IMG/VR virus record: IMGVR_UViG_2617270988_000017
Source: a virus
Taxonomy: Duplodnaviria > Heunggongvirae > Uroviricota > Caudoviricetes
DNA length: 12,893 bases
Strand: one strand, 5' to 3'
Numbering within the stretch: the stretch's first letter is position 1; each line of letters begins with the position of its first letter. Shown one piece after another: positions 1 to 11,155 of this stretch. Under the pieces are notes generated by a model that saw only the letters and a program-made list of their open reading frames with translations, did no database searches and had not been told where the DNA came from. A program made the translations under genes and the position numbers.

Positions 1-1461
1 ATGAAAAAATTACTGCATCTTTTTTTCCCGCTCTCGCTGCGGGTACGTTTTCTGTTAGCAACGGCAGCAGTAGTATTGGTGCTTTCGCTTGCCTACGGAA
101 TGGTTGCGCTGATCGGTTATAGCGTCAGTTTCGATAAAACCACGTTTCGGCTGTTACGTGGCGAGAGCAATCTGTTCTATACCCTTGCGAAGTGGGAAAA
201 CAATAAGTTGCATGTCGAGTTACCCGAAAATATCGACAAGCAAAGCCCCACCATGACGCTAATTTATGATGAGAACGGGCAGCTTTTATGGGCGCAACGT
301 GACGTGCCCTGGCTGATGAAGATGATCCAGCCTGACTGGCTGAAATCGAATGGTTTTCATGAAATTGAAGCGGATGTTAACGATACCAGCCTCTTGCTGA
401 GTGGAGATCATTCTATACAGCAACAGTTGCAGGAAGTGCGGGAAGATGATGACGACGCGGAGATGACCCACTCGGTGGCGGTAAACGTCTACCCGGCAAC
501 ATCGCGGATGCCAAAGTTAACCATTGTGGTGGTGGATACCATTCCGGTGGAGCTAAAAAGTTCCTATATGGTCTGGAGCTGGTTTATCTATGTGCTCTCA
601 GCCAATCTGCTGTTAGTGATCCCGCTGCTGTGGGTCGCCGCCTGGTGGAGTTTACGCCCCATCGAAGCCCTGGCAAAAGAAGTCCGCGAACTGGAAGAAC
701 ATAACCGCGAATTGCTCAATCCAGCCACAACGCGAGAACTGACCAGTCTGGTACGAAACCTGAACCGACTGTTAAAAAGTGAACGCGAACGTTACGACAA
801 ATATCGTACGACGCTCACCGACCTGACCCATAGTCTGAAAACGCCACTGGCGGTGCTGCAAAGTACGCTGCGTTCTCTGCGTAGTGAGAAGATGAGCGTC
901 AGTGATGCTGAGCCGGTAATGCTGGAGCAAATCAGCCGCATTTCACAGCAAATTGGCTACTACCTGCATCGTGCCAGTATGCGCGGCGGGACATTGCTTA
1001 GCCGCGAGCTGCATCCGGTCGCCCCACTGCTGGACAATCTCACCTCGGCGCTGAACAAAGTGTATCAACGCAAAGGGGTCAATATCTCTCTCGATATTTC
1101 GCCAGAGATCAGCTTTGTCGGTGAGCAGAACGATTTTGTCGAGGTGATGGGCAACGTGCTGGATAATGCCTGTAAATATTGCCTCGAGTTTGTCGAAATA
1201 TCTGCAAGGCAAACAGACGAGCATCTCTATATTGTGGTCGAGGATGATGGCCCCGGTATTCCCTTAAGCAAGCGAGAGGTCATTTTCGACCGTGGTCAAC
1301 GGGTTGATACTTTACGCCCTGGGCAAGGTGTAGGGCTGGCGGTAGCCCGCGAAATCACCGAGCAGTATGAGGGTAAAATCGTCGCCGGAGAGAGCATGCT
1401 GGGCGGTGCGCGGATGGAGGTGATTTTTGGTCGCCAGCATTCTGCGCCGAAAGATGAATAA
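1..1461 (+). CDS. phoQ: Sensor histidine kinase PhoQ of the PhoPQ two-component system, complete
   Basis: The 486-aa translation reads as E. coli PhoQ essentially end to end from memory (MKKLL...[15 protein letters not shown]; periplasmic acidic patch EDDDDAEM; H-box [12 protein letters not shown]; C-terminal [12 protein letters not shown]). ATG at 1, TAA at 1459-1461. Confidence 0.97.
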
Positions 1462-1971
1462 ATATGTCCTTTTATCACCACAGCAAGGCAACCAATTGAT
1501 TTAATTAAACAACTCACACTGCAAAAAGTGCTAAAAACAGCAAATTGACTACACCATTAACTACACCGTTCGGTGCACTGTATGAAACAACGTTGAACAA
1601 ATAGACACAAGAAATATACAGGCGGGTAATCTTTCCAGGGGGAAGCGCACCAATTCATGAGGGGCGTTAATGTCGATATGGGGATCCCCATAACGGGGCT
1701 ACCAGATTTTTTTTCCGGTTAACTGTTAATCAGGCTGGTGGGCTTTACCTGTTCGGTAGGTGTTATGATTATCGTAATACCTTTCCCCCAATGGGGTAAA
1801 AGCTCCAACCGTAACGATGTTCGTTATGGTTGCCTTGATGGTCTGAGTGGTCATTTTGACCATTCAGCCAATGACCTTAATCAGAATTTTTCGCTAAAAA
1901 ATGACGTTGGCCACGTCATCCGGAAAGCACAAAATCACGTCGATTTTTAATGAACGGTTAAACCGTCTTTT

Positions 1972-2008
1972 TGTCACGGTGTGTCACTGGTTGTCACTCT
2001 CCGTCACG
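1972..2008. repeat. Four GTCAC pentamers in perfect 10-bp phasing (putative protein-binding array)
   Basis: GTCAC occurs at 1973-1977, 1983-1987, 1993-1997 and 2003-2007, so all copies sit on one helical face. A palindrome ACGGTT-A-AACCGT lies just upstream at 1953-1965. Function is inferred. Confidence 0.4.
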
Positions 2009-2096
2009 ATTGAGGTGGTGGACATTCTGCCCGACCGCGCATTTTTGCGCTATCGGGAATATCAAACAGTTACCGCGCCGACTTCCTCAAATTGAG

Positions 2097-2237
2097 GTTT
2101 CCGAAAATATCAGCGGGTTAGCGATTAAGCTGACGAGTAATTAAACTGCGAAAATTTCGTAGTTTGTGACTATCTGAAAGATAGTCGGTTGTTCCGGCCT
2201 CAGCCGTTGGCTGTTTCCGAAAATATCAGTAGGTTAG
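2097..2237. repeat. Pair of about 25-bp direct repeats (GTTTCCGAAAATATCAG + GGTTAG) 116 bp apart, flanking an 8-bp-stem palindrome
   Basis: Copy 1 is at 2097-2121 and copy 2 at 2213-2237, with a 17-bp identical core. Between them, 2168-2186 is GACTATCT-gaa-AGATAGTC. Possible arm or recombination-accessory sites near the element's left end; function not established. Confidence 0.4.
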
Positions 2238-2238
2238 G

Positions 2239-2262
2239 CCAAAGCTCAAAAATGAGCTTTGG
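2239..2262 (-). terminator. Hairpin 16 nt downstream of the 93-aa ORF, possible terminator or RNA-stabilising stem
   Basis: Perfect 10-bp stem CCAAAGCTCA / TGAGCTTTGG with a 4-nt loop. There is no clean U-tract after the stem on the minus strand, so it is a weak terminator call. Confidence 0.35.
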
Positions 2263-2277
2263 AACAATATCAACAAG

Positions 2278-2559
2278 TTACCGCCGTAACCGCTCCGGCT
2301 TCTTCCAGTGGTACGTAATTTTCTCCGTTTCCCGATACAGTGCCACGCGGCGATTGTAGGCCAGCATTTCAAGAACGCGGATCCGTATGTTGCGCATATC
2401 CACATCATTAAGCTGGATACCATCACGGCGCATCACCTCAGCAACAACACGCGCATAATTTTCGGCTGTCACGCTGTCCGGCTGCGTGGCCTGTTCGTCA
2501 GTCTGCTGGCTGATTCCACCAGCACGGCGGATTAATCCCAGTATTTCGGCTTCTGTCAT
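2278..2559 (-). CDS. Hypothetical protein, 93 aa
   Basis: ORF with ATG at 2559-2557 and TAA at 2280-2278. It lies just outside cos-L and reads away from it. No family recognised by eye. Confidence 0.55.
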   Translation of the reverse strand: MTEAEILGLIRRAGGISQQTDEQATQPDSVTAENYARVVAEVMRRDGIQLNDVDMRNIRIRVLEMLAYNRRVALYRETEKITYHWKKPERLRR

Positions 2560-2592
2560 TGTGCACCCATCGTTCTGATTGTCTGGTGTCGT

Positions 2593-2705
2593 CGGGTCCT
2601 TCCTGGAATTATGGACCCGTTACGGGGCGGCGACCTCGCGGTTTTTATCTGTTTATGAAAATTTTCCGGCAAAAGTCAGATCCGTTCTTCTTCTCTGTAA
2701 CAGAC
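2593..2705 (+). other. Lambda-type cos site, left copy (cos-L): cosQ-like, cosN, lambda-like cosB
   Basis: 2593-2636 reads CGGGTCCTTCCTGGAATTATGGACCCGTTACG followed by GGGCGGCGACCT, then CGCGGTTTTTATCTGTTTATGAAAATTTTCCGG...CCGTTCTTCTTC. This closely matches the lambda right-end/left-end junction as I remember it (...CGGGTCCTTTCCGGTGATCCGACAGGTTACG | GGGCGGCGACCTCGCGGGTTTTCGCTATTTATGAAAATTTTCCGG...CCGTTCTTCTTCG). The cosN 12-mer is at 2625-2636. Its packaging direction points into the 3' end of terS. Confidence 0.75.
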
Positions 2706-2723
2706 TGTTTAACAATGAAAATA

Positions 2724-2797
2724 TTAAAAAAAGAAAGGATCTGACACGAGGCATTTTAGCCAGAAAATGCCATTATCAGATCCTTTCTCATTTTTGT
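2724..2797. terminator. Bidirectional Rho-independent terminator downstream of terS
   Basis: Compound hairpin with outer stem AAAGGATCTGA (2734-2744) / TCAGATCCTTT (2776-2786) and inner stem GGCATTTT (2750-2757) / AAAATGCC (2764-2771). An A7 run at 2726-2732 gives a U-tract on the minus strand, and TTTTT at 2791-2795 gives one on the plus strand. Confidence 0.7.
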
Positions 2798-2815
2798 TCA
2801 ATAATTGCGCGTCTG

Positions 2816-3358
2816 TTACTCGCCTTTCTTCTGTAGCAACTTTTCCGGTACGTTTCCGGTTGTTTCTTTCAAGTAATCAGTCAGTATCTGTGGGAGGTTG
2901 TCGGCAACTCTGGCACTGGCATTACAGGCTTTAACCACTTCCCTTTTAAGCCTATCCAGCATGGCGGGGGTAATCTGTGGGAAGCTCCTTTGCATAGTAA
3001 GCGGGAGGCTGTCCATGATTGATGAAATCTGACTCGCCAGCTTTGAAAGCGCGTACAGGCAAAACTCAGTATCAATCACGTCACCGCGATCGCGCTCGTT
3101 TTTAAGTTCCTGCGCCTCCGCCTGTGCTGTCAGTAATCTGATCCTGACTCGTAAGAGTTCATCATCATCAATATCGCCTTTGTCGTTTGTAAGCTGGCTA
3201 ATTGCATTGTTAACCCTATTGTCTATCACGCTGGCAACATCATAAAACGCCTCACGGCCTTTACGTTCAACGGGAGTCACTCCCCACTTGTCGAACGCTG
3301 TCGCACTTACACGGCAGCTTTTCGCCATGTTTTTTTTGTTCATCAGGTGCGATTTCAT
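2816..3358 (-). CDS. Terminase small subunit, lambda Nu1 family
   Basis: The 180-aa product aligns along its length with lambda Nu1 recalled from memory: N-terminal winged-HTH region (NKKNMAKSCRVSATAFDKW vs NKKQLADIFGASIRTIQNW) and C-terminal region (LTAQAEAQELKNERDRGDVIDTEFCLYALSKLASQISSIMDSLPLTMQRSFP vs LTRAQADAQELKNARDSAEVVETAFCTFVLSRIAGEIASILDGLPLSVQRRFP). ATG at 3358-3356. Confidence 0.9.
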   Translation of the reverse strand: MKSHLMNKKNMAKSCRVSATAFDKWGVTPVERKGREAFYDVASVIDNRVNNAISQLTNDKGDIDDDELLRVRIRLLTAQAEAQELKNERDRGDVIDTEFCLYALSKLASQISSIMDSLPLTMQRSFPQITPAMLDRLKREVVKACNASARVADNLPQILTDYLKETTGNVPEKLLQKKGE

Positions 3359-3360
3359 TA

Positions 3361-3534
3361 ATACACCAACTTAATTACTGCTTCAGGTTGGTGTATTGTT
3401 TGCATCTTTCCCTTTTTATTCATAAAGATAGATCAAACAACGAAACCACCACCACCCCCCTGAAAAGGCTCATAAATAGCGAAAAACCGCTAGGTCGCCG
3501 CCCCGTAACGGGCCATAATTCCAGGAAGGACCCG
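3361..3534 (-). other. Lambda-type cos site, right copy (cos-R): cosQ-like, cosN, divergent cosB, directly upstream of terS
   Basis: 3493-3534 is the near-perfect reverse complement of 2593-2635 (42 of 43 positions, one 1-nt indel), with the cosN 12-mer AGGTCGCCGCCC at 3492-3503. On the minus strand it continues CGGTTTTTCGCTATTTATGA (lambda-like), then diverges (CAGGGGGGTGGTGGTGG) and ends in the 10-bp inverted repeat ATACACCAAC (3361-3370) / GTTGGTGTAT (3387-3396) beside the terS ATG. The cosN-cosB-terS order and orientation match lambda. Confidence 0.75.
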
Positions 3535-3535
3535 T

Positions 3536-3558
3536 AAAAAAGCCGGATTTCTCCGGCC
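3536..3558 (-). terminator. Rho-independent terminator ending the capsid operon
   Basis: Minus-strand stem GCCGGA-gaaa-TCCGGC followed by T6 (plus-strand A-run 3536-3540), 6 nt after the stop of the 137-aa ORF. Confidence 0.75.
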
Positions 3559-3563
3559 TTGTC

Positions 3564-3977
3564 TCAGATGGTTTTCAGTATGCGATCGATGTCGCCGTCA
3601 TCGCCCTGGTTTCTGCCATCGTATGCCATGCCAGCTGATACGGCTTGCGGGCTGTGCATGTCCATAAAGTTTTCAAAGGCTGCGGTAAGTTCCGGCGCAA
3701 CCTTCGGACGTTCCTGCTCTATGGTCATGCTAAGGATGCTTTTAGCCGTACCAACATCGATACAAGGCACGTTTGCCATTGCACGCAACAGCGGCTGATA
3801 GTCTTTATGCTCATGAAGCGCCATAATCGCATCAGCGCGCGGCTTGTCCTGCTCTTCCAGTTTGTTTAGTTGATATACGGCCTCATAGGTTGATAAACCT
3901 CTGTCAGCCATTGCCCGCGCTTCGACTTTAAATTTACTCGCCAGCGGTAGCGTCATGATGCTTTCATTCGTTGCCAT
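3564..3977 (-). CDS. Hypothetical protein, 137 aa, last gene of capsid operon
   Basis: ATG at 3977-3975 is preceded by a strong SD (AGGGGGAA) and follows the decoration-gene stop with a short gap. No family recognised. Inferred to be capsid-associated from context only. Confidence 0.65.
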   Translation of the reverse strand: MATNESIMTLPLASKFKVEARAMADRGLSTYEAVYQLNKLEEQDKPRADAIMALHEHKDYQPLLRAMANVPCIDVGTAKSILSMTIEQERPKVAPELTAAFENFMDMHSPQAVSAGMAYDGRNQGDDGDIDRILKTI

Positions 3978-3989
3978 CGTTCCCCCTGC

Positions 3990-4325
3990 TTATCGGGCCA
4001 GCGGCTGAACGGATACGCCGGAACCCGCAAAGGCGGCGCATTTTTTCGCATCGGTGTCGACGCTCTCAGGCCAGTTAACGGCGGCAATATTGAATATCCC
4101 CGTCTTGTAACACTGTGCTGATTTCTGCTTTGACGTGCCCACAGGGTACGAGGTCAGATAAACAGCCTTGCCAGATTCCTGACCATCCCACGGCTTAAAC
4201 TCGCCATTGTCTGCCAGCATCAGCGGGGTAAATTCCTGAATAACGCCAGCATCAGCGGCAAAATGTACCAACGTCGTGGATACCTGCTGACTGCCTGCAA
4301 ATAACTCAATGTATGGAGTGTCCAT
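3990..4325 (-). CDS. Head decoration protein, lambda gpD family
   Basis: The 111-aa product matches lambda gpD from memory ([23 protein letters not shown] vs [59 protein letters not shown] vs [36 protein letters not shown]). SD GGGGGGA upstream of the ATG at 4325. Confidence 0.85.
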   Translation of the reverse strand: [111 protein letters not shown]

Positions 4326-4337
4326 AGAATCCCCCCG

Positions 4338-5393
4338 TTAACCAATTTTGACGGTAACAAATTTGCGAATATCTGCCGGTACCGGCTGCGGTGCACTGTG
4401 TGTCTGCACGTACTCAATCGCCGGATCGCCGTCCTCAATCCAGTTTTTCGGGTAAAACATGTTTTGTGTTGCGCCCGTTCTTACCGCTTCCTGATCCATT
4501 ATCGCACCATAGGCCACCAGCCCTTTATTGTTGGTGTTACCCAGGACCAGCAAATCAGGCTCAAGGAAATATTTTTCGGTACCATCGCTGTCAGTGTATT
4601 TGCCGGAATAGACGATAAGGGCCAGATCACCAAGATAGCCTTTAAAGCTCACCACTTCGCCCAGGTTTTTACAGGCCAGTTCGGCGGCGGATTCTGAACC
4701 ACGGGAAAGATCGTACAGCTCACGGAATTTTTTAAAGCTGCCTAATGTGCGCCATACCTCAGCGCCCATAATCATGACGTTTGCGGGGCAACCAGCCTGA
4801 TCAGCATAAAGCTCGATGTCATAGATTGGGTCGTGCATGTCTTTATCCTGCTCGGACCATTTTTTACCCTTGGCCTGCTCTATGATGCAGTTTTCCGGTA
4901 TTTTCCAGTCGATTTCATAGCGTTCTATGCCTTCGCCCTCAATGATGTTTTTTCCGGTCGTTACCGCATTCACCGCCAGCCATTCCACGCGTGCCTTAAT
5001 GGCGTTTATCTGGCGGCGCATGTTGCCAGTAATCAGGCGCATACGGCGATAGGTAGGGTCGTTAAGCTGTGCCGGATCTTCTCCAGCCATGCGCATGATG
5101 GTTTTCGTTGGATCGATTTCGTGCTTTGGCTTCATGTAGCCAGGTTTGATTGTGCTGGTTTCGTACCCTTTATCGCGCTGAACCTGGCTACCCACCATAG
5201 GCGAACAAAACGCCGACATGGTGACTTCTTCAATGTCCAGGGTATCCAGCATGATGTTTTGCGTGCTGAATGTCGCCACGTTCGGGAAAAACAGCGTGGT
5301 AAACAGAGGGCTGAATTTAAAATCCGCAATATCCCCGCGATTCAGGTACATGAAAAGCTGGTTAGTGTTAAGTGCCGTTGCTTTGCCTGCCAT
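4338..5393 (-). CDS. Major capsid protein, lambda gpE family (HK97 fold)
   Basis: The 351-aa product aligns with lambda gpE over its full length by eye, at moderate identity (for example KPGYMKPKHEIDP vs TPGYVKPKHEVNP; DPTYRRMRLITGNMR vs DPAYRRRRIIMQNMR; LVLGNTNNKGLVAYGAI vs MVLGNTQARGLRTYGCI; YPKNWIEDGDPA vs YPKNWVTTGDPA). SD GGGGGTGA. The E-then-D gene order is the reverse of lambda. Confidence 0.92.
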   Translation of the reverse strand: MAGKATALNTNQLFMYLNRGDIADFKFSPLFTTLFFPNVATFSTQNIMLDTLDIEEVTMSAFCSPMVGSQVQRDKGYETSTIKPGYMKPKHEIDPTKTIMRMAGEDPAQLNDPTYRRMRLITGNMRRQINAIKARVEWLAVNAVTTGKNIIEGEGIERYEIDWKIPENCIIEQAKGKKWSEQDKDMHDPIYDIELYADQAGCPANVMIMGAEVWRTLGSFKKFRELYDLSRGSESAAELACKNLGEVVSFKGYLGDLALIVYSGKYTDSDGTEKYFLEPDLLVLGNTNNKGLVAYGAIMDQEAVRTGATQNMFYPKNWIEDGDPAIEYVQTHSAPQPVPADIRKFVTVKIG

Positions 5394-5599
5394 TATTCAC
5401 CCCCATAATTTTTATGCATCCCAAGCGCCGCAAGTAAATAAGAGCGTACAAGTGAACCTATCGACGGCTCCGGCGTCATCAGCGGATCCAGTCCAGCCGC
5501 AACGCCAGCTTCATAGTTTTTTTTGTGGCGCTGCTTGAGCACCTCCACGATTTCGGGGCTTATGTACACCGAAACACCGCCTTTTTTCTCTTCAGCCAT
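5393..5599 (-). CDS. Hypothetical protein, 68 aa, first gene of capsid operon
   Basis: In-frame ATG at 5599 (MAEEKKGG...) preceded by GAGG. Its stop overlaps the capsid-gene start (TAATG), implying translational coupling. The track's longer start at 5632 has no SD. Confidence 0.5.
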   Translation of the reverse strand: MAEEKKGGVSVYISPEIVEVLKQRHKKNYEAGVAAGLDPLMTPEPSIGSLVRSYLLAALGMHKNYGGE

Positions 5600-5649
5600 A
5601 GTAAGAAATTCCTCTTCGACTAAAAAAATCATAACTGGATGTTTATCCA

Positions 5650-5684
5650 GTCCTGATTATAATCAGAATTGCATTTTATGCAAT
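5650..5684 (-). promoter_or_regulatory. Candidate sigma70 promoter for the capsid operon, embedded in two palindromes
   Basis: Minus strand reads TTGCAT (5683-5678), a 16-nt spacer, then TATAAT (5661-5656). The -10 lies inside the perfect 14-bp palindrome CTGATTATAATCAG (5653-5666) and the -35 inside TTGCAT-ttt-ATGCAA (5669-5683). The first ORF starts about 55 nt downstream. Confidence 0.5.
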
Positions 5685-5764
5685 GATATTGAGTTATGTT
5701 GCAAATTATGAAATGATTATCCCGATCACGAACGCCAGTGCATCCAAAAACCTCATATGCAAAA

Positions 5765-5802
5765 GCCCGATAAGAACCCTCTGACCTTATCGGGCTTTTT
5801 TT
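5765..5802 (+). terminator. Rho-independent terminator, plus-strand orientation, probably bidirectional
   Basis: Stem GCCCGATAAG (5765-5774) / CTTATCGGGC (5786-5795) with a 11-nt loop, followed by T7 (5796-5802). There are four U on the minus-strand side. Confidence 0.6.
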
Positions 5803-5808
5803 GGGCGC

Positions 5809-5830
5809 AAAAAAGCCGGATTGCTCCGGC
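5809..5830 (-). terminator. Rho-independent terminator downstream of the 74-aa cassette ORF
   Basis: Minus-strand GCCGGA-gcaa-TCCGGC followed by T6. Same stem sequence as the terminators at 3536-3558 and 6172-6194. Confidence 0.7.
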
Positions 5831-5850
5831 TATGTGTGCTGTGTGCTGGC

Positions 5851-6075
5851 TCAGTCTCTGATCTCTTTCAGAAATTCTATCAATGCATCTATCTGTTCAG
5901 GATTTACCGCCAGCATTTCACCGGATAGAGCACATCTCACAAAACCATGCTGATCCTTTTCAATCAGTGCGCCCGTCTCCAGGAATGCGCGGTAATCATT
6001 GATGCTCATCGTCTCCATGTTGTCAGCATGGTATTTATCACGCTGTTTTAATATCTCATCAAATTTCATCGGCAT
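5851..6075 (-). CDS. Hypothetical protein, 74 aa, terminator-insulated single-gene cassette (moron-like)
   Basis: ATG at 6075 with SD AGAGGAA about 10 nt upstream. Intrinsic terminators lie both upstream (6172-6194) and downstream (5809-5830, 5765-5802). No family recognised. Confidence 0.6.
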   Translation of the reverse strand: MPMKFDEILKQRDKYHADNMETMSINDYRAFLETGALIEKDQHGFVRCALSGEMLAVNPEQIDALIEFLKEIRD

Positions 6076-6171
6076 TGTTTTTTTCCTCTGTTGTGTCTGT
6101 TTGTTTCAGATAGTAACTATGCCTGACCGTGACGAAAACCCGGTAATGCGCCATACCGTTTCAACTGGTGC

Positions 6172-6194
6172 AAAAAAAGCCGGATTTCTCCGGC
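6172..6194 (-). terminator. Rho-independent terminator ending the replication/regulatory operon
   Basis: Minus-strand GCCGGA-gaaa-TCCGGC followed by T7 (plus-strand A-run 6172-6178), 8 nt after the perC-like stop. Confidence 0.75.
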
Positions 6195-6201
6195 TGTTTG
6201 A

Positions 6202-6474
6202 TTAGCTGTCCTGGTAATTGCGCCATATTTCATCACCAGCACCATCTATACCCATTTCGGCATAAGTGCGATCGACTGCCTTTTTCAGGTCTCCGAAATT
6301 ATCCGGCGGCTCCGGTGCCCTCTGTGCCTTCCTTGAACATTCCAGCCGTCGCATCGTGATGTGATGCCGTTCCTTGTCTGTCTCCACCAGCTGCATGACT
6401 TCACCCCATCGCGCCGCCGCCCTCCGGTAAAAGCCTTTCGCCTCCAGTTCCTCCGCTATGCGGTCATGTACCAT
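6202..6474 (-). CDS. PerC-family transcriptional activator-like protein, 90 aa
   Basis: Start MVHDRIAEELEAKGFYRRAAARWGEVM carries the PerC/Pch-type N-terminal motif as I recall it. ATG at 6474 has a strong SD (GAGGGGGTGA). The track's longer version overlaps ssb and is rejected. Confidence 0.65.
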   Translation of the reverse strand: MVHDRIAEELEAKGFYRRAAARWGEVMQLVETDKERHHITMRRLECSRKAQRAPEPPDNFGDLKKAVDRTYAEMGIDGAGDEIWRNYQDS

Positions 6475-6484
6475 CGTCACCCCC

Positions 6485-6895
6485 TCAGAACGAAATATCA
6501 TCACCGTAAGAGTCATCGCCTCCCGCTGGTGGCTGATTACCCTGTGTGCCTGTGGTTTTGCGTCTGTTCCCGCCTGGACGTGCCGCGCGGGCACTGATTA
6601 CGCTGTCTGCGATAACCTGCCAGCCCTGCCGCGTTTCTCCGTTCTGTCCGGTCCACTGGCTTACCTGCATCGTGCCGGATACGCTGGCAACATCGCCTTT
6701 TTGATGTTTAGCCAGGAAGTCGGCCTGTTTGCCAAATGCGATGACCGATAACCATAACGTCGCCTGTCCGTCCTGTGCCTGGCTGCATGGCAAAGATACC
6801 GCCATACGCGCCAGCGTCATCGGTGTGCCCTTGCTGGTCTGTTTTACCTGCGGGTCGTCCACCAGCCGCCCGTAAGCGGCTATCTGTGCCGTCAT
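6485..6895 (-). CDS. ssb: Single-stranded DNA-binding protein
   Basis: 136 aa with an OB-fold-like N-terminal region, a Gly/Pro/Gln-rich linker (GTQGNQPPAGGDDSYG) and an acidic C-terminal tip DDISF resembling the SSB DDDIPF tail. The start overlaps the upstream stop (ATGA). Confidence 0.85.
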   Translation of the reverse strand: MTAQIAAYGRLVDDPQVKQTSKGTPMTLARMAVSLPCSQAQDGQATLWLSVIAFGKQADFLAKHQKGDVASVSGTMQVSQWTGQNGETRQGWQVIADSVISARAARPGGNRRKTTGTQGNQPPAGGDDSYGDDISF

Positions 6896-7143
6896 AATTC
6901 CACCTCTCCGGTTTTAACGTTGATGGTTGTTACCTGTTCCGCTTCGGCAATCTCCCGTTCTGTCAGCGTGGCAAAGTTTGCCGCCGCCGTGGTCATGAAT
7001 GCGCTTATCAGGTCGGGATGTTCCTTCGCGTATCCTTCCCGCGTGTGGCGGTCTATCGTTCTGATTGCCACCTTTAAGGTGTGCTCAGTCATGTCTAACG
7101 CTTTATATTTTGGCTCTGTTCTGTCTCTGCGTTTTTGGGTCAT
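6892..7143 (-). CDS. Hypothetical protein, 83 aa, translationally coupled to ssb
   Basis: In-frame ATG at 7143 (MTQKRRDR...) with SD GAGAGG. The track start at 7173 is GTG and sits in the iteron array. The stop overlaps the ssb start. Confidence 0.5.
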   Translation of the reverse strand: MTQKRRDRTEPKYKALDMTEHTLKVAIRTIDRHTREGYAKEHPDLISAFMTTAAANFATLTEREIAEAEQVTTINVKTGEVEL

Positions 7144-7152
7144 TTCTCGCAA

Positions 7153-7348
7153 CCTCTCACTTTTTCGCCTCACTTTTTCAAGCGTCTCACTTCGTCGCAG
7201 TTGGGATTTTCGGTTTTTCTATGTGTGTGTTTCATAAGTATTTTTTTACCCCTCACTTTTGAGGATGTATACAGGTCGAAAAGTGAGGGAGAGCGGGCTA
7301 ATTTTGGCCCTCTTTCTATCCCCCTCGCTTTTGCTCCTCACTTTTATA
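7153..7348. repeat. Iteron array, putative origin of replication of the element
   Basis: CTCACTTTT-type repeats at 7156-7165, 7169-7178, 7186-7192, 7252-7260, 7278-7289 (inverted), 7323-7333 (variant CTCGCTTTT) and 7336-7347, plus an AT-rich stretch at 7230-7248. It lies immediately 3' of the rep gene, as is typical of satellite and plasmid origins. Confidence 0.55.
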
Positions 7349-8743
7349 GCGGCGCTACATCATCCCCATCGATACGAATAACCCCATCTTTTTCCAGCTT
7401 GTACAGCCAGCGCCGGAAGTTTTTCATTTCATACCCCAGCTTTTTCATGTCATCACGTAACAGCGGGATCGTGCACTTGTCGCCGTTCTGTGTGCGTGAA
7501 CGGATGCACCCCCATAGCGCGGTATGGTTTTCCGTCTTGTTCCCTGCCTCCTCGATGCGCTCCAGTTCAACAGGAGGGCGCGGATCATCCACCACCACCA
7601 GCGACGTGATTAATTCACCGTCAGCGTCGGTAAAAAGCTCCACCACGCGTAAGTCATATGCGGCTTCTTTGAGTTCCTCCGCGTCCTTCATTTTGGTGCA
7701 TGAGATAACCAGCGCTTCGCTTCCTGCGTCCTCCCTGCGTATCCGGTATTCAGCATCCAGCGAAGCACGAAATGCACTGGAACCGCGCGCGCCTTTCGTC
7801 TCATCCTTGCCGGAATGGTGAACCACCAGCACCGTGGCCCCTGTGCGTCGTTTCAGTTCGTCACAACCACGGATAAACGCCCCATATCACGGGAATCATT
7901 TTCATCATTCCCACCAAAGCAACGCGCCAGCGTATCCAGAATAATCATGCGTACAGGTTTACCCGTTTCCCGCTCCACCTGACGGGCAGCGATAACCATT
8001 TCATCAACATCAAGCGGGGCAGCCGGAAAGATGGGGCGGTTTACCAGATACAGATTTTTCACCTGCTCATCGTGCACAACCTCCCAGGCTTTTACACGAC
8101 GCGGAACACCTATACCGCCTTCACCAACCACATAGAGAACCGCACCATGTGCAACCCTGCGGCCTCCCCACTGGCGACCAGTGGCAACATGGCACGCCCA
8201 CGATCCGGCAAGGAATGATTTATAGGACCCGCTAGCCCCGTATATGCTGCATAGCGATACCGCCGGAATAATCCCCTTAACCACGTAATCCAGTTGCGTG
8301 TCGTATCCGGTAGATCCAACGCTCATCGGTAGCGTGGTTTTTCGCTGGTGGTTTTTTTCTTCCGCCGGCTCTTTCCCGCGCACCCGTTCCAGGTATTCGC
8401 GCCAGTTCTCCCGCATATGGCTGTGCATCCCTTCGGGGTAATAATTCGCATCAGTTACACCCGCCGCCGCCAGCTTGTGCGCAATGGCATTAATATTTGA
8501 TGGCCTGATGTGGCCTGCCTTGTACAGCCGGACACAATAGCGCCCCTCGTCGATGATTCTCAGGTCTGCCAGTTCATCCAGTTGATCATCAGCCAGCACA
8601 ACGGGAGGCACATTATCGCCAGCCAGTCGCCCGTCCTGTTCCTGCCACTGTTTCGCATGTGCCCAGGCATCACTACCCGCAAAAATAATGACTTCGGTCA
8701 TCTTGTCGTAAGGCTGTTTTTTTAAGTTCGGTGCGCTTTTCAT
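7344..8743 (-). pseudogene. Replication protein (primase/helicase-like, RepA-type P-loop ATPase with C-terminal winged-helix-like tail); reading frame interrupted near 7880
   Basis: The N-terminal ORF (8743..7853) has a Walker-A-like GASGSYKS and ILDTLARCFGG. The C-terminal ORF (7832..7344) continues in another frame with VVHHSGKDETKGARGSSAFRASLD, typical of RepA/AAA_25-like ATPases. The total span is 1400 nt, not a multiple of 3. The frames join if the G4 run (plus-strand CCCC 7880-7883) is G5, giving ...DSRDMGAFIRGCDELKRRTGATVLVVHH... Confidence 0.7.
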
Positions 8744-9039
8744 TTCTTGCCCCTGAATCCGTTAACCATGGTTTTCAGCTTCTGGATGTTTGCCCGTGCC
8801 CTGGCGTTGCTGGTGGGCACGTTATGCGGCGCGGTCTGTACCAGAGAAAAATCACGCCGGAACTGATAAACAGGCATCACGCAATCATATTCGTAACCTT
8901 CACGGCGGTAAGTTACGCACCGTCCCGCCACGCCCTTAATCATTACCGTGCCGCCGTACTGGTCGCGGTAAATATCACCGCGCGTAAATTTAGGGTGAGT
9001 GTTGCCACTGGCAGTTAAGCCAGAATATTTAAGTTTCAT
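8740..9039 (-). CDS. Hypothetical basic protein, 99 aa
   Basis: ATG at 9039 with GGAG upstream. The stop overlaps the rep start (ATGA). No family recognised. Confidence 0.55.
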   Translation of the reverse strand: MKLKYSGLTASGNTHPKFTRGDIYRDQYGGTVMIKGVAGRCVTYRREGYEYDCVMPVYQFRRDFSLVQTAPHNVPTSNARARANIQKLKTMVNGFRGKK

Positions 9040-9279: not shown

Positions 9280-9501
9280 TTAATCCCCGTCCGTTGTTTT
9301 TCTTAAAACAGCTTCTGTCACGAAATCAGCATAGTTAGCGGCAATATCAAGAATATTTAGCCCTGTATCTCTGTGCTCATCAGTGCAAAGAAAGAAAAAA
9401 GCCACCCGCATAATTTCAGATATTGACGAAAGCGCATCAGCCGCATCATCAGGAACGCCGGAAAATTCTTGTTTCAGGGAATTAAAACGATCATCACGCA
9501 T
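9280..9501 (-). CDS. Hypothetical small acidic protein, 73 aa
   Basis: ATG at 9501-9499 (MRDDRFNSLKQEFSGVPDDAADAL...). The track's longer N-terminus is rejected. It shares a PD-AADAL motif with the upstream 73-aa ORF. Confidence 0.55.
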   Translation of the reverse strand: MRDDRFNSLKQEFSGVPDDAADALSSISEIMRVAFFFLCTDEHRDTGLNILDIAANYADFVTEAVLRKTTDGD

Positions 9502-9715
9502 AACCCCCCCCATTTTCACAATCAGCAACAAGAATATTTTTAGCGTCATTCAGCGACCGCGTTGCGATGTATCGGATACATTCCAGGGCGAACTGTGTCC
9601 GGTCTTTCTGTTCTTCTCCCTGCGCAAGCTCTGCAGTGCATTCAATATCGATAAGCGCGTGCATCAGCGTAGTGAGCGCGTCGGCTGCTGCGTCCGGTGT
9701 GGTTTTATTGCACAT
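9494..9715 (-). CDS. Hypothetical small acidic protein, 73 aa
   Basis: ATG at 9715-9713 (MCNKTTPDAAADAL...) preceded by a strong SD (AGGAGGTG). It ends in NGGGYA encoded by a G8 run and overlaps the next start. Confidence 0.6.
   Translation of the reverse strand: MCNKTTPDAAADALTTLMHALIDIECTAELAQGEEQKDRTQFALECIRYIATRSLNDAKNILVADCENGGGYA
9504..9511. repeat. C8/G8 homopolymer at a gene junction
   Basis: Eight consecutive C on the plus strand (G on the coding strand). It encodes the GGG tail of the upstream ORF and lies 2 nt before the ATG of the downstream ORF. Confidence 0.9.
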
Positions 9716-9896
9716 GGCACACCTCCTGACGAATACGGGCGGCGAATACAGCAACACAACCGGACGGGCAACGGCTACGCGCTTCGCGTTCCGTCCAGGC
9801 GGTTACGTGGATGATTTGATGTTCTGACGCGCCAAAGATGATAAAGCGCCAGAGAAAGGCGGTTTGAGAATGTACAAGGGTAGGGATAGTAGCCAT
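9705..9896 (-). CDS. Small protein, 63 aa; possibly Icd-like (host cell division inhibitor family), tentative
   Basis: ATG at 9896 with SD GAGGAGG 8 nt upstream, TAA at 9707-9705. The WRF and FAARIRQ motifs resemble what I recall of Icd-like small proteins from P4-like islands, but this is unverified. A diverged tandem copy lies 369 bp upstream. Confidence 0.5.
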   Translation of the reverse strand: MATIPTLVHSQTAFLWRFIIFGASEHQIIHVTAWTEREARSRCPSGCVAVFAARIRQEVCHVQ

Positions 9897-10056
9897 GTTG
9901 GCAGCCTCCTCAGTGTGGTTAAGATAACCGCCACCGGAAACGCCAATTTCGCTGGTGGCGGACTGTACAGGGTTGGCGTAACCGGACACTGAAGAAACCG
10001 GCGCGGATTGCTCCGCCCCCGTACAGCCCACCATTGATAAGGTGTGACTATGCGGC

Positions 10057-10082
10057 ACAAAAAAACACGCGGGGCGCGTGTT
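10057..10082 (-). terminator. Strong Rho-independent terminator signature inside the upstream tandem copy
   Basis: Minus strand reads AACACGCG-CCC-CGCGTGTT followed by TTTTTTT (plus-strand A7 at 10059-10065). It is GC-rich with an uninterrupted U-tract. Confidence 0.65.
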
Positions 10083-10265
10083 ATGCGCTTCAGTTTTGCC
10101 CAGGACGCCAATCCCGGCACCCGTTTTATGAGGTGCGCGGGAATCATAGCTATTTTCGACACTGGCGATCAACTGGTTTTTTTCTCCGATATTCAGGGCC
10201 AGAAAACGCCACACAAAGGCCGTTTGTGTGTGTACAAGGTGTGGTATATGATTTACGGCAACCAT
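10083..10265 (-). pseudogene. Degenerate tandem paralogue of the 63-aa ORF (or translated leader); no in-frame stop before the terminator
   Basis: ATG at 10265 with SD AGGAG. The first 30 or so codons are homologous to the downstream ORF (PHLVHTQTAFVWRFLAL vs PTLVHSQTAFLWRFIIF) with synonymous and conservative changes. The frame then runs through the terminator without a stop, and a C-terminal-like motif (RVFLCRI vs AVFAARI) appears only in another frame. Confidence 0.35.
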
Positions 10266-10293
10266 AACGGCTCCTAGTTTACGTTGTTGGTTA

Positions 10294-10328
10294 GACGCCC
10301 CGTATGTGTTCCCAGCACTGCGGGGCGT
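10294..10328. promoter_or_regulatory. 8-bp inverted repeat ACGCCCCG / CGGGGCGT with a 19-bp spacer in the divergent control region
   Basis: Arms at 10294-10301 and 10321-10328, in the 5' leader of the minus-strand small-ORF operon and upstream of the RHH promoter. Confidence 0.4.
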
Positions 10329-10353
10329 TGATTTTTGTGTAATGGCAAGTACA

Positions 10354-10395
10354 ATGGTAATTACCATGTAGGTATAGTAATGAAGGGTAATTACC
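10354..10395. promoter_or_regulatory. Two GGTAATTACC operator-like palindromes at the RHH gene promoter
   Basis: Perfect 14-bp palindrome ATGGTAATTACCAT at 10354-10367 and GGTAATTACC at 10386-10395, centres 30 bp apart. The second abuts the RHH ATG. A TATAGT -10-like hexamer is at 10373-10378. Confidence 0.6.
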
Positions 10396-10569
10396 ATGTC
10401 AACACCATTAGAAAAACGTTCGCCTCCATACCAAATGCGATTACCGGAAGACTTCAGAGCGCAGCTAGAAGAAGCAGCTAAGGCCGATGGCGACACATCT
10501 TTAGCCACTTGGATTAAACGCGTTCTCCGCAAAGAATTACAGCAACGCGGCATAGAACCCAAAGGATAA
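10396..10569 (+). CDS. Ribbon-helix-helix (Arc/CopG-like) DNA-binding protein, 57 aa
   Basis: ATG at 10396, TAA at 10567-10569. The product MSTPLEKRSPPYQMRLPEDFRAQLEEAAKADGDTSLATWIKRVLRKEL has the typical RHH pattern (beta-strand YQMRLP, then two helices). It is absent from the ORF track because it is under 60 aa. Confidence 0.7.
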   Translation: MSTPLEKRSPPYQMRLPEDFRAQLEEAAKADGDTSLATWIKRVLRKELQQRGIEPKG

Positions 10570-10611
10570 AAACTATCAGCGCCGTGGTGTGAGGTATTAC
10601 GGCGCATTGCT

Positions 10612-10800
10612 ATGCAGGACAACACAATGACCGATAAAGAATTGACCAAAACATTATCACCGGCACGGAAAAGACGGCGCAGAAAGATAGAGCATGAATC
10701 AGAAAGATTCGCGCCATGTGCTTTTGCCCTTGAGCAATTCCTTAAAGAGTACAGGGAAAAGCGCTCATTGCAGGTATGGCAACGAACTGAACCAGACTGA
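10612..10800 (+). CDS. Hypothetical small basic protein, 62 aa, downstream of the RHH gene
   Basis: ATG at 10612 (alternative ATG at 10627 with AGGA upstream). It contains an ARKRRRRK basic patch. The coding call is weak. Confidence 0.4.
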   Translation: MQDNTMTDKELTKTLSPARKRRRRKIEHESERFAPCAFALEQFLKEYREKRSLQVWQRTEPD

Positions 10801-10894
10801 TTGCATTGCCCACCAGCCTGATAGCGGCTATCATCCCCGTGCTTATGTTTGGGATCACATACACATAAGGCGCAGCGGGTTAATTGTTCAGAAA

Positions 10895-10922
10895 GGCGGC
10901 TCCATATCGGGGCCGCTTTTTT
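10895..10922 (+). terminator. Rho-independent terminator between convergent alpA and the RHH operon
   Basis: Stem GGCGGCTCC (10895-10903) / GGGGCCGC (10909-10916) followed by T6 (10917-10922). Confidence 0.65.
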
Positions 10923-10948
10923 CGTGTTTGTCATATCTGTGATACCCG

Positions 10949-11155
10949 TTAAGCAGCCGTTCCGCGTGCTTCCTCTTCGCGTTCTTTCTGCCAGGACAAC
11001 ACATCATCCTCATACCATCCGCGACGGCGTAAACCAACGCGAAAACCCTGCGGAAATTCTCCGGCGTTGATCATGCTTTGCAGCGTGCTGTCTGCCTTGA
11101 TGTGGATAATTTTTTTTACTTCCTGGCGAAAGATAATTTTTCTGATTGCTTCCAT
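10949..11155 (-). CDS. alpA: AlpA-family phage transcriptional regulator / excisionase-like protein
   Basis: The 68-aa product matches the AlpA pattern (IIHIKADSTLQSMINAGEFPQGFRVGLRRRGWYEDDVLSWQ vs CP4-57 AlpA ...TGMARATIYDWLNPKSPRYDATFPKKRMLGVKSVGWIEAEIDEWL). ATG at 11155. Confidence 0.8.
   Translation of the reverse strand: MEAIRKIIFRQEVKKIIHIKADSTLQSMINAGEFPQGFRVGLRRRGWYEDDVLSWQKEREEEARGTAA

Follow-up and report, generated by a model that had tools for sequence, protein, structure and literature searches.

An isrK-C4 RNA module nested in an Eta-like reading frame of an Escherichia coli phage satellite: a probable immunity gate of the P4/P1 type

Why should a small phage-borne gene appear to start twice within a few hundred nucleotides, with no stop codon to separate the two starts? 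The question is raised by IMG/VR record IMGVR_UViG_2617270988_000017, a stretch of viral DNA of 12,893 nucleotides that we call the window at its full length. In it two ATG codons, one at 10265 (Shine-Dalgarno sequence (SD) AGGAG, 10275..10271) and one at 9896 (SD GAGGAGG, 9911..9905), lie exactly 369 nucleotides apart on the minus strand, in one frame and with zero stops between them. The two copies share a segment of about 45 nucleotides, about 78% identical, that codes for P(H/T)LVH(T/S)QTAF(V/L)WRF (hereafter the WRF segment) and whose local alignment score of 40 compares with 15.0 +/- 2.0 (maximum 23) in shuffled sequences. A sequence-only reading of this DNA had recognized both starts with their SDs and the missing stop of the upstream copy, all of which we confirm, and had proposed a tandem duplication that left either a decayed paralogue or a terminator-controlled gate ahead of the replication genes. 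The analyses presented here indicate that the region is probably the early-left control region of a satellite resembling the phage-inducible chromosomal islands (PICIs), acting as an RNA immunity gate of the P4/P1 type with a nested Eta-like open reading frame (ORF).

Every feature of this finding is on the minus strand, and those on which the argument rests are the following:

10265..9705, minus strand: Eta-like read-through ORF of 186 amino acids with its own SD, spanning PisrK, isrK, the terminator and C4 and ending as the 63-amino-acid Icd/Kil-like protein
10143..10172, minus strand: PisrK, a predicted promoter matching the consensus (TTGATC, 18 nucleotides, TATGAT), which stops 7 nucleotides short of isrK +1
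10136..10060, minus strand: isrK/seqA-like small RNA (Rfam RF01394, 66 bits with a gathering score of 50, model positions 1-77 of 77)
10082..10057, minus strand: intrinsic terminator of isrK (stem 10082..10064, U7 tract 10063..10057)
10038..9951, minus strand: C4/CI-like antisense RNA (Rfam RF01695, 77.6 bits with a gathering score of 45, model positions 1-87 of 87, E = 3.7e-14)
9904..9946, minus strand: seqC-like target (a'/b' in P1 terms), made of UUGGCGU (9946..9940) and ACACUGAGGAGGC (9916..9904)
9896..9705, minus strand: Icd/Kil-like gene of 63 amino acids (the downstream WRF copy) with a type-B 5' end, NCBIfam NF033153

The scan of the window with Rfam, run at gathering thresholds, identified as two catalogued RNA genes the structures that the sequence-only reading had seen without naming them. 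The U7-tailed hairpin proves to be the isrK terminator, with an 8-bp stem (5 G-C pairs), a loop of 3, a free energy of -14.6 kcal/mol and a z score of -3.5, and it falls within the covariance-model match of isrK. In C4, the inverted repeats centred on TGTACA form the outer stem, and GCGGA/TCCGC pair as hairpin 1 (GCGGA-GCAA-UCCGC). The minimum free energy (MFE) fold of C4 (-46.9 kcal/mol) agrees with the family model in placing an outer stem around two hairpins and a single-stranded joint, an architecture that could be parsed in 98 of 120 related loci. Two claims of the earlier reading need correction: the local duplication, to which we return below, and the place of the terminator. The terminator is not embedded in the upstream copy, as the homology between the copies stops after codon 28 at 10182, before the terminator. 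The highly structured leader is confirmed for the RNA running from 10136 to the second AUG, which is more structured than its shuffles (MFE -106.6 kcal/mol, z = -4.6), but not for the stretch of the upstream copy, which is not unusually structured (z = +0.6 against shuffles).

The two RNAs and the start of the Icd/Kil-like gene are tied together by complementarity. C4 exposes the loop of its hairpin 2, UUUCUUCAGUGU (9997..9986), and the single-stranded joint ACGCCAA (9979..9973), and these are complementary to two pairs of sites, one inside isrK (UUGGCGU, 10111..10105, and ACUGAAG, 10094..10088) and the other just 5' of the icd-like start. Pairing of UUUCUUCAGUGU with ACACUGAGGAGGC spans 13 bp (-19.0 kcal/mol) and includes the SD GAGGAGG, so that the ribosome-binding site of the first gene after the RNA module is inside the antisense target. 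P4 is wired in this way through seqA, CI and seqC, and P1 through c4 and its a/b targets.

Changes in C4 are accompanied by compensatory changes in isrK and in the seqC-like site in four relatives, as follows (C4; isrK site; site upstream of icd):

UC4316: joint AGGCUAA; UUAGCCU; UUAGCCU
RM13752: loop CUUCGUUAA; UAACGAAG; UAACGAAGAGG
2024CK: loop CCUUUGAC; GUCAAAGG; GUCAAAGGAGG
STEC17: CCUUGAUUG / AGUCCUAA; CAAUCGAGG / UUAGGAC; CAAUCAAGGAGG / UUAGGAC

We extended the comparison to 43 loop/joint specificity types drawn from the 120 C4 loci, which came from a scan of viral contigs with a C4 DNA pattern (a search of genome contigs with the 63-amino-acid protein gave 3 loci). A duplex scan with full-length C4 along the transcript was swamped by the self-stems of C4, and loop-only and joint-only tests were used instead. 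Cognate duplexes were stronger than non-cognate ones for the loop with isrK (-13.2 vs -9.2 kcal/mol), the loop with the SD (-14.0 vs -8.9 kcal/mol) and the joint with isrK (-13.7 vs -9.7 kcal/mol); the advantage amounts to 4-5 kcal/mol, and a typical cognate target outdoes about 95% of the non-cognate ones. Judged from these sequences, the sites in isrK, C4 and the icd SD region covary three ways.

The same covariation decides whether the WRF segments themselves could be extra antisense targets of C4, with their repetition kept at the RNA level. Both copies do contain UGGCG(U/C), a partial match to the C4 joint, and in copy 1 it is followed by CUGAA, a partial complement match to the C4 loop. 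In UC4316, however, where the joint has changed from ACGCCAA to AGGCUAA and the isrK and seqC-like sites from UUGGCGU to UUAGCCU, both WRF segments kept UGGCG; the same WRF sequence is found in islands of the E. coli O157:H7 TW14359 type, which have no C4 in cis; and the motif belongs to the Icd protein family, being present also in P1-type Icd (FIWRF). The lack of covariation in UC4316 leads us to reject this explanation, to which we give next to no chance, and a role of the repeat itself in RNA control is not supported.

To see how the module would operate, two further features have to be considered:

10374..10402, minus strand: P-left, a predicted sigma-70-like promoter (TTGACA, 17 nucleotides, TACTAT; 10 of 12 consensus matches)
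9715..9494, minus strand: the next gene, 73 amino acids, read from the sequence (PHROG 5146, E = 4e-13)

By analogy with P4, P1 and Gifsy-1, the layout, complementarity, covariation and nested frame would work in the following manner. In the resident state PisrK would give the short IsrK, ending at the U7 terminator, and RNA reading through that terminator would be processed to C4. C4 would then mask the SD of icd, the untranslated RNA would be terminated and the coupled replication genes, from the ATG at 9715 on to DUF4222 and RepA, would stay silent. When the operator-controlled P-left fires, ribosomes would initiate at 10265 and carry translation on past isrK, its terminator and C4; their passage across the module would block folding, pairing and termination, and the replication operon would be switched on regardless of immunity.

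If translation has this role, the frame through the RNA genes should matter, and the comparison of relatives bears on this. Copy 1 and copy 2 are the two ends of a single ORF of 186 amino acids, which matches PHROG 29966 over its full length (E = 6e-110) and the P4-Eta family PHROG 6928 from amino acid 28, the junction described below, to 178 (E = 4e-23). We compared 31 unique relatives (59-100% identical) in which the SD and the ATGGCTAC start are both present. In 27 of them the in-phase frame stays open to a point beyond isrK; the other two frames do so in 7 and 0. This frame has survived a 3-nucleotide indel and a compensating pair of +1/-1 indels. It could be held that the upstream copy is a dead remnant beside a genuine RNA module, with the 28-codon fragment and the stop-free frame left over without a role and with transcripts from P-left simply terminated, or read through for other reasons. 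The fragment is indeed rare, occurring in only 4 of the 120 C4 loci, and it is without two thirds of the Icd domain, a 43-amino-acid stretch of the upstream copy giving no match when searched alone with NF033153; an in-frame join has moreover a prior of 1 in 3, and in shuffles of the isrK-C4 core one or more open frames remain in 30% of cases. We grant this view only a modest chance, since the counts of 27 as against 7 and 0 among diverged relatives speak for the frame, since the SD and ATG of the fragment are intact in the window, in UC4316 and in a further relative (L128), and since P4 has the same nesting with a role reported for it in the literature (PMC10111431). Cassette-bearing relatives without the WRF fragment also keep an SD-ATG at the equivalent place, which opens the same frame with an unrelated peptide (MLNHTTHPQGRDSHNLNK...). 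That unrelated leaders open the same frame suggests that the act of translation weighs more than the N-terminal sequence. The label of decayed paralogue given by the sequence-only reading thus fits in part: copy 1 consists of 28 codons from the 5' end of another icd allele, yet it keeps its SD and start and heads a conserved read-through ORF.

A different reason for keeping the frame would be that the 186-amino-acid product acts as a protein, either as an "Ash" or Bro-network regulator or as a fusion with a doubled Icd N-terminal motif. Residues 40-133 match Pfam PF10554, Phage_ASH (E = 3e-17), several PHROG matches are labelled transcriptional regulator or repressor, and P4 eta has been placed among the Bro-network genes (PMC10111431). 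But that match covers about window 10148-9867 and coincides with isrK plus C4, whose translation we take it to be; the most variable residues are the codons lying over the RNA specificity loops and they covary with the RNA targets; and the N-termini are unrelated, the window type having MVAVNHIPHLVHTQTAFVWRF... and the RM13752 type MLNHTTHPQGRDSHNLNK.... The repressor labels probably go back to an old P4 coding sequence named "cI gene product", PHROG 1743 matching the Kil end of it, and the immunity factor of P4 is an RNA according to the literature (PMC3632133, PMC10111431). We consider a protein function of this sort to be very improbable. The opposite idea, that the Pfam Ash family is a purely spurious translation of RNA, was suggested by a frame open in 47% of the 120 C4 loci; it was softened because the in-phase frame is open in 27 of the 31 relatives and because P4 Eta and Gifsy-1 orf45 cover the same RNA. 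We also set aside a giant Eta of 409 amino acids coupled to alpA (10934..9705), as stops lie upstream of the SD-ATG in UC4316 and L128 and the divergent ribbon-helix-helix (RHH) gene that it would run across has family support. The stop-free frame of 409 codons is itself present in the window (9705-10934, minus strand), beginning just after alpA, running antisense to two plus-strand genes and continuing across the promoter region and the whole module; at the near-identical O26 locus the Prokaryotic Genome Annotation Pipeline (PGAP) calls its upstream part a pseudo "Icd-like protein". This upstream extension is probably non-coding.

Several observations weigh against the immunity gate as we describe it. 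The Eta-like frame carries a stop in 4 of the 31 relatives, and when all C4 loci are taken, lambdoid phages included, 60 of 88 have at least one open frame over isrK-C4 and 28 do not, so that translation through the module is not universal. The compared loci are phylogenetically related and the frame counts overstate their independence. The fragment itself has diverged too little (2 of 84 nucleotides between the window type and the UC4316 type) to show selection on it. P-left and PisrK are predicted from consensus matches, and alpA (11155..10949) is cut off from the ATG at 10265 by two plus-strand genes and the promoter/operator region. Finally, the direction of the event that produced the two WRF copies, cassette insertion here or deletion in relatives, is argued rather than proven.

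As to how that event took place, the relevant feature is the upstream copy:

10265..10182, minus strand: upstream WRF copy, codons 1-28 of a type-A icd/kil allele (MVAVNHIPHLVHTQTAFVWRFLALNIGE), with which the Eta-like ORF now begins

The upstream region including this copy is 97.6% identical over 164 nucleotides to O157:H7 TW14359, and in many E. coli genomes these 164 nucleotides are, at that identity, the beginning of an intact Icd-like gene. In TW14359, and in the closely similar prophage Sp7 of Sakai, one intact icd-like gene of 65 amino acids stands at this position; its 5' part matches copy 1 through ...CGGAGAA save for four substitutions in the last 14 bases (4 of 84 positions of the fragment), the 3' parts of this gene and of copy 2 are the same, and the approximately 360 nucleotides between are missing. 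Neither C4 nor isrK was found by Rfam in these two islands. Relatives of this kind, with an intact upstream gene, a normal stop and no hairpin, were what the sequence-only reading had named as the finding that would overturn its proposal. Conversely, RM13752, 2024CK and STEC17 carry PisrK-isrK-C4-icd and no WRF fragment was found upstream in them. In the four aligned relatives that bear the cassette, it is the type of copy 2 that accompanies it, and the hexamers of PisrK are kept in all five cassette-bearing relatives. The boundary between the two parts falls just 5' of the PisrK -35 hexamer (...GGAGAA|AAAAACCAGTTGATC), and we read the window as joining the 28-codon start of a type-A icd to an isrK-C4-icd(type-B) cassette. 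Because the two copies are only about 78% alike while copy 1 is near-identical to the TW14359 allele, an origin by local tandem duplication is not supported, and the copies are better seen as diverged alleles brought together by recombination. We favour insertion of the cassette into a type-A gene, with an illegitimate left junction and homologous exchange in the conserved 3' half of icd; later deletions between repeats may also have contributed. The apparent duplication of the WRF segment would then have arisen incidentally when an icd allele and the cassette were joined in frame, and only in-frame, stop-free joins would leave the island inducible.

A hybrid leader was also observed in IMGVR_UViG_2617271340_000010 (L083), about 120-200 nucleotides upstream of its C4, where an RM13752-type start (MRNHTTHPQGRDSHNLNK) is followed by YIWRFLA (TGGCGTTTTCTGGCCC) directly 5' of PisrK. 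As far as its sequence tells, this is a second and shorter icd-cassette junction that retains just ...YIWRFLA. The islands of O157:H7 and O55:H7 are without the cassette. It is tempting to generalize that the isrK-C4-icd' block is a portable cassette, gained and lost within an icd/kil gene, whose in-frame joining creates a nested ORF of the Eta type de novo, a proposal that we regard as tentative and at present rather unlikely. Were it true, it would show how the eta/kil architecture of P4 arises and that closely related PICIs differ in being under RNA immunity at all. With the same reservation, the 186-amino-acid product, with its second Icd N-terminal WRF motif, could have an activity of its own, for example in modulating the toxicity of Icd/Kil.

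The relation to P4, which the sequence-only reading had drawn as a loose analogy, was correct and too cautious, as isrK, C4 and a Kil/Icd-like protein nested in an Eta-like ORF make it one of homology. What we say of P4 eta/kil is drawn from the P4 sequence and from PMC10111431, which summarizes the work on P4. In P4, isrK (8692..8615) and C4 (8507..8420) are both inside the ORF 8812..8168, in which the residues MMM at 16-18 give a product of 197-199 amino acids whose last 65 are Kil, with its Icd-like domain. The order isrK/seqA, C4/CI, then SD and ATGGCTAC start of a Kil/Icd-like gene of about 65 amino acids is common to both elements, as are a terminator-like hairpin with a U tract closing seqA/isrK, a long ORF reaching from a start upstream of the internal promoter to the end of Kil, a next gene overlapping the kil stop, and replication genes (primase or helicase) downstream. 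IsrK and C4 are structural homologues of P4 seqA and CI (PMC3632133; PMC4825925), and in P4 Kil can be translated on read-through whereas full-length Eta comes solely from the upstream late promoter, eta/kil translation having a role in read-through (PMC10111431). The satellite differs from P4 in its lambda-type capsid E, decoration protein D, Nu1-type terminase, RepA and SSB and in being without sid, delta and psu; its Eta-like ORF has an SD of its own and is not next to alpA, the divergent RHH gene and operators lying between; and the N-terminus of that ORF is a recycled icd 5' end with the WRF motif, whereas P4 Kil is without WRF. The two are alignable as DNA mainly at the C4 core and the kil SD-start, and as proteins at 32% identity over 111 amino acids. 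The comparison that had also been made with lambda N-dependent terminators is unsupported, nothing like lambda N having turned up in the annotation of the window, although no search was aimed at it.

Likeness to immI of P1/P7 is found in the C4-family RNA placed directly 5' of an Icd-family gene, in the antisense target covering the icd ribosome-binding site, in the F-I-W-R-F N-terminus of Icd and in the coupling of a downstream gene to icd. The satellite, in contrast, has replication genes and no antirepressor gene (ant) downstream of its icd-like gene, and the P1-type locus has C4 followed by icd with no isrK match at the gathering score. In the isrK-orf45-anrP region of Gifsy-1 (Hershko-Shalev et al. 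2016, PMC4825925), isrK has short and read-through isoforms, a C4-like RNA (STnc1160) is processed, and translation occurs from a conserved AUG in the 5' stem of C4, the ORF being coupled to the gene after it. The bases G28 and G31 of IsrK, paired experimentally there, belong to the UUGGCGU element, which in the window (10111..10105) faces the C4 joint ACGCCAA (9979..9973). Gifsy-1 differs in that its downstream gene is an antirepressor in a lambdoid prophage, that IsrK there trans-activates translation, and that neither an Icd-like gene nor an ORF starting upstream of PisrK has been described. The Rfam models of C4 and isrK match several Gram-negative PICIs, in the "Bro zone", for which immunity similar to that of P4 has been proposed (Mageeney et al. 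2023, PMC10111431), and the window shares with Gram-negative PICIs int, alpA, a Bro/immunity zone, replication genes and captured lambdoid late genes. The system is thus catalogued and already noted in this class of elements. That work gives no dissection at the level of the locus, and what the present analysis adds in detail is the recycled icd 5' end in the Eta-like ORF, the existence of related islands from which the cassette is absent, and the three-way covariation.

Upstream of the Eta-like ORF the control region contains, besides P-left:

10395..10386 and 10365..10356, both strands: two perfect 10-bp palindromes GGTAATTACC, read from the sequence, putative operators
10396..10569, plus strand: RHH gene of 57 amino acids (YlcI/YnfO / Arc-like), divergent from P-left
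10295..10328, minus strand: leader hairpin (-18.4 kcal/mol, z = -3.5)

We propose that P-left drives the leftward operon as an analogue of P4 PLL, PisrK being the putative internal promoter and the analogue of PLE. The position of P-left is kept in TW14359. The palindromes lie 30 bp apart, flank the hexamers of P-left and overlap the start of the RHH gene; they are the same in TW14359, and relatives of other immunity types, among them UC4316 and 2024CK, have different repeats at that place. The RHH protein (NCBIfam NF041551, E = 1.4e-3; PHROG 228, Arc-like repressor, E = 1.5e-6), which PGAP annotates as YlcI/YnfO at the same place in three relatives (L004, L005 and L007), is a candidate repressor of P-left. 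The leader hairpin has retained its position among relatives despite changed stem and loop sequences, and within about 20 nucleotides after it the motif CTTCTAACCA(A/C)CAACG is present in most of the aligned island relatives, with or without the cassette. Read on the plus strand, the same hairpin region resembles a terminator with a T-rich tail.

At the other end of the module, the Icd/Kil-like protein matches NF033153 (host cell division inhibitor Icd-like) with E = 1.4e-15 and 57.1 bits (cut-off 25), a family matched also by P4 Kil and P1-type Icd. It can be aligned with both, and its F-x-W-R-F motif recurs in P1-type Icd; its PGAP product at the near-identical O26 locus is WP_150322679.1. 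The ATG of the 73-amino-acid gene (9715..9713) comes 8 nucleotides before the icd-like stop (9707..9705), the two genes overlapping by 11 nucleotides, and this motif of kil/icd stop and next ATG is conserved with P4. The overlap suggests translational coupling of the icd-like gene into the replication module, and small hypothetical genes, DUF4222 and RepA follow 3' of it.

The window as a whole is a PICI-like phage satellite and not a P4-like one. It carries int, an AlpA-type regulator, the divergent RHH gene, the icd-like gene, DUF4222, a RepA-type helicase and SSB, together with late genes for a lambda E-type capsid protein, a D-type decoration protein and a Nu1-type small terminase, and it adjoins phoQ; the P4 core genes (alpha primase, sid, delta, psu, epsilon) did not turn up in family scans of the window proteins. 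An island of E. coli O26:H11 strain 11368 matches the 821 nucleotides surrounding the finding at 99.9% identity, as do many O26, O103 and O111 strains. A well-studied RNA immunity switch is in this way placed in a lambda-parasitising, PICI-type satellite of pathogenic E. coli (O26, O103, O111), with exact coordinates for its RNAs, targets and read-through ORF. The placement explains why databases contain "ash family protein" pseudogenes (PGAP labels the near-identical O26 locus with one of these and an "Icd-like protein"), long "Icd-like" pseudogenes and "transcriptional repressor" PHROGs: such labels are translations of RNA genes or pieces of the Eta-like ORF, and the product names are misleading. 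Islands with and without the cassette constitute a natural experiment on the contribution of RNA immunity to satellite induction. Current understanding is not overturned by these findings.

Comparison along the rest of the window shows that its late-gene half (1-6900) is unrelated to the O26:H11 11368 island, though the immunity region is common to both, and resembles the islands beside phoQ in O55:H7/O157:H7 (97.8%). The whole window was found in no complete E. coli genome of the collection; because the best of them covers 79% of it, we regard the window as a mosaic. The RepA-family helicase (7344-8743, minus strand) is split into ORFs of 296 and 162 amino acids by a 1-nucleotide deletion in a C run near 7884, which is either a pseudogene or a sequencing error; in O26:H11 11368 it is an intact gene of 466 amino acids. 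Another run of C, at 9504-9511, has 8 C in the window and 9 C in O26:H11 11368, and as it sits where the ORFs 9280..9549 and 9494..9715 overlap it could be a slippage-prone frame switch.

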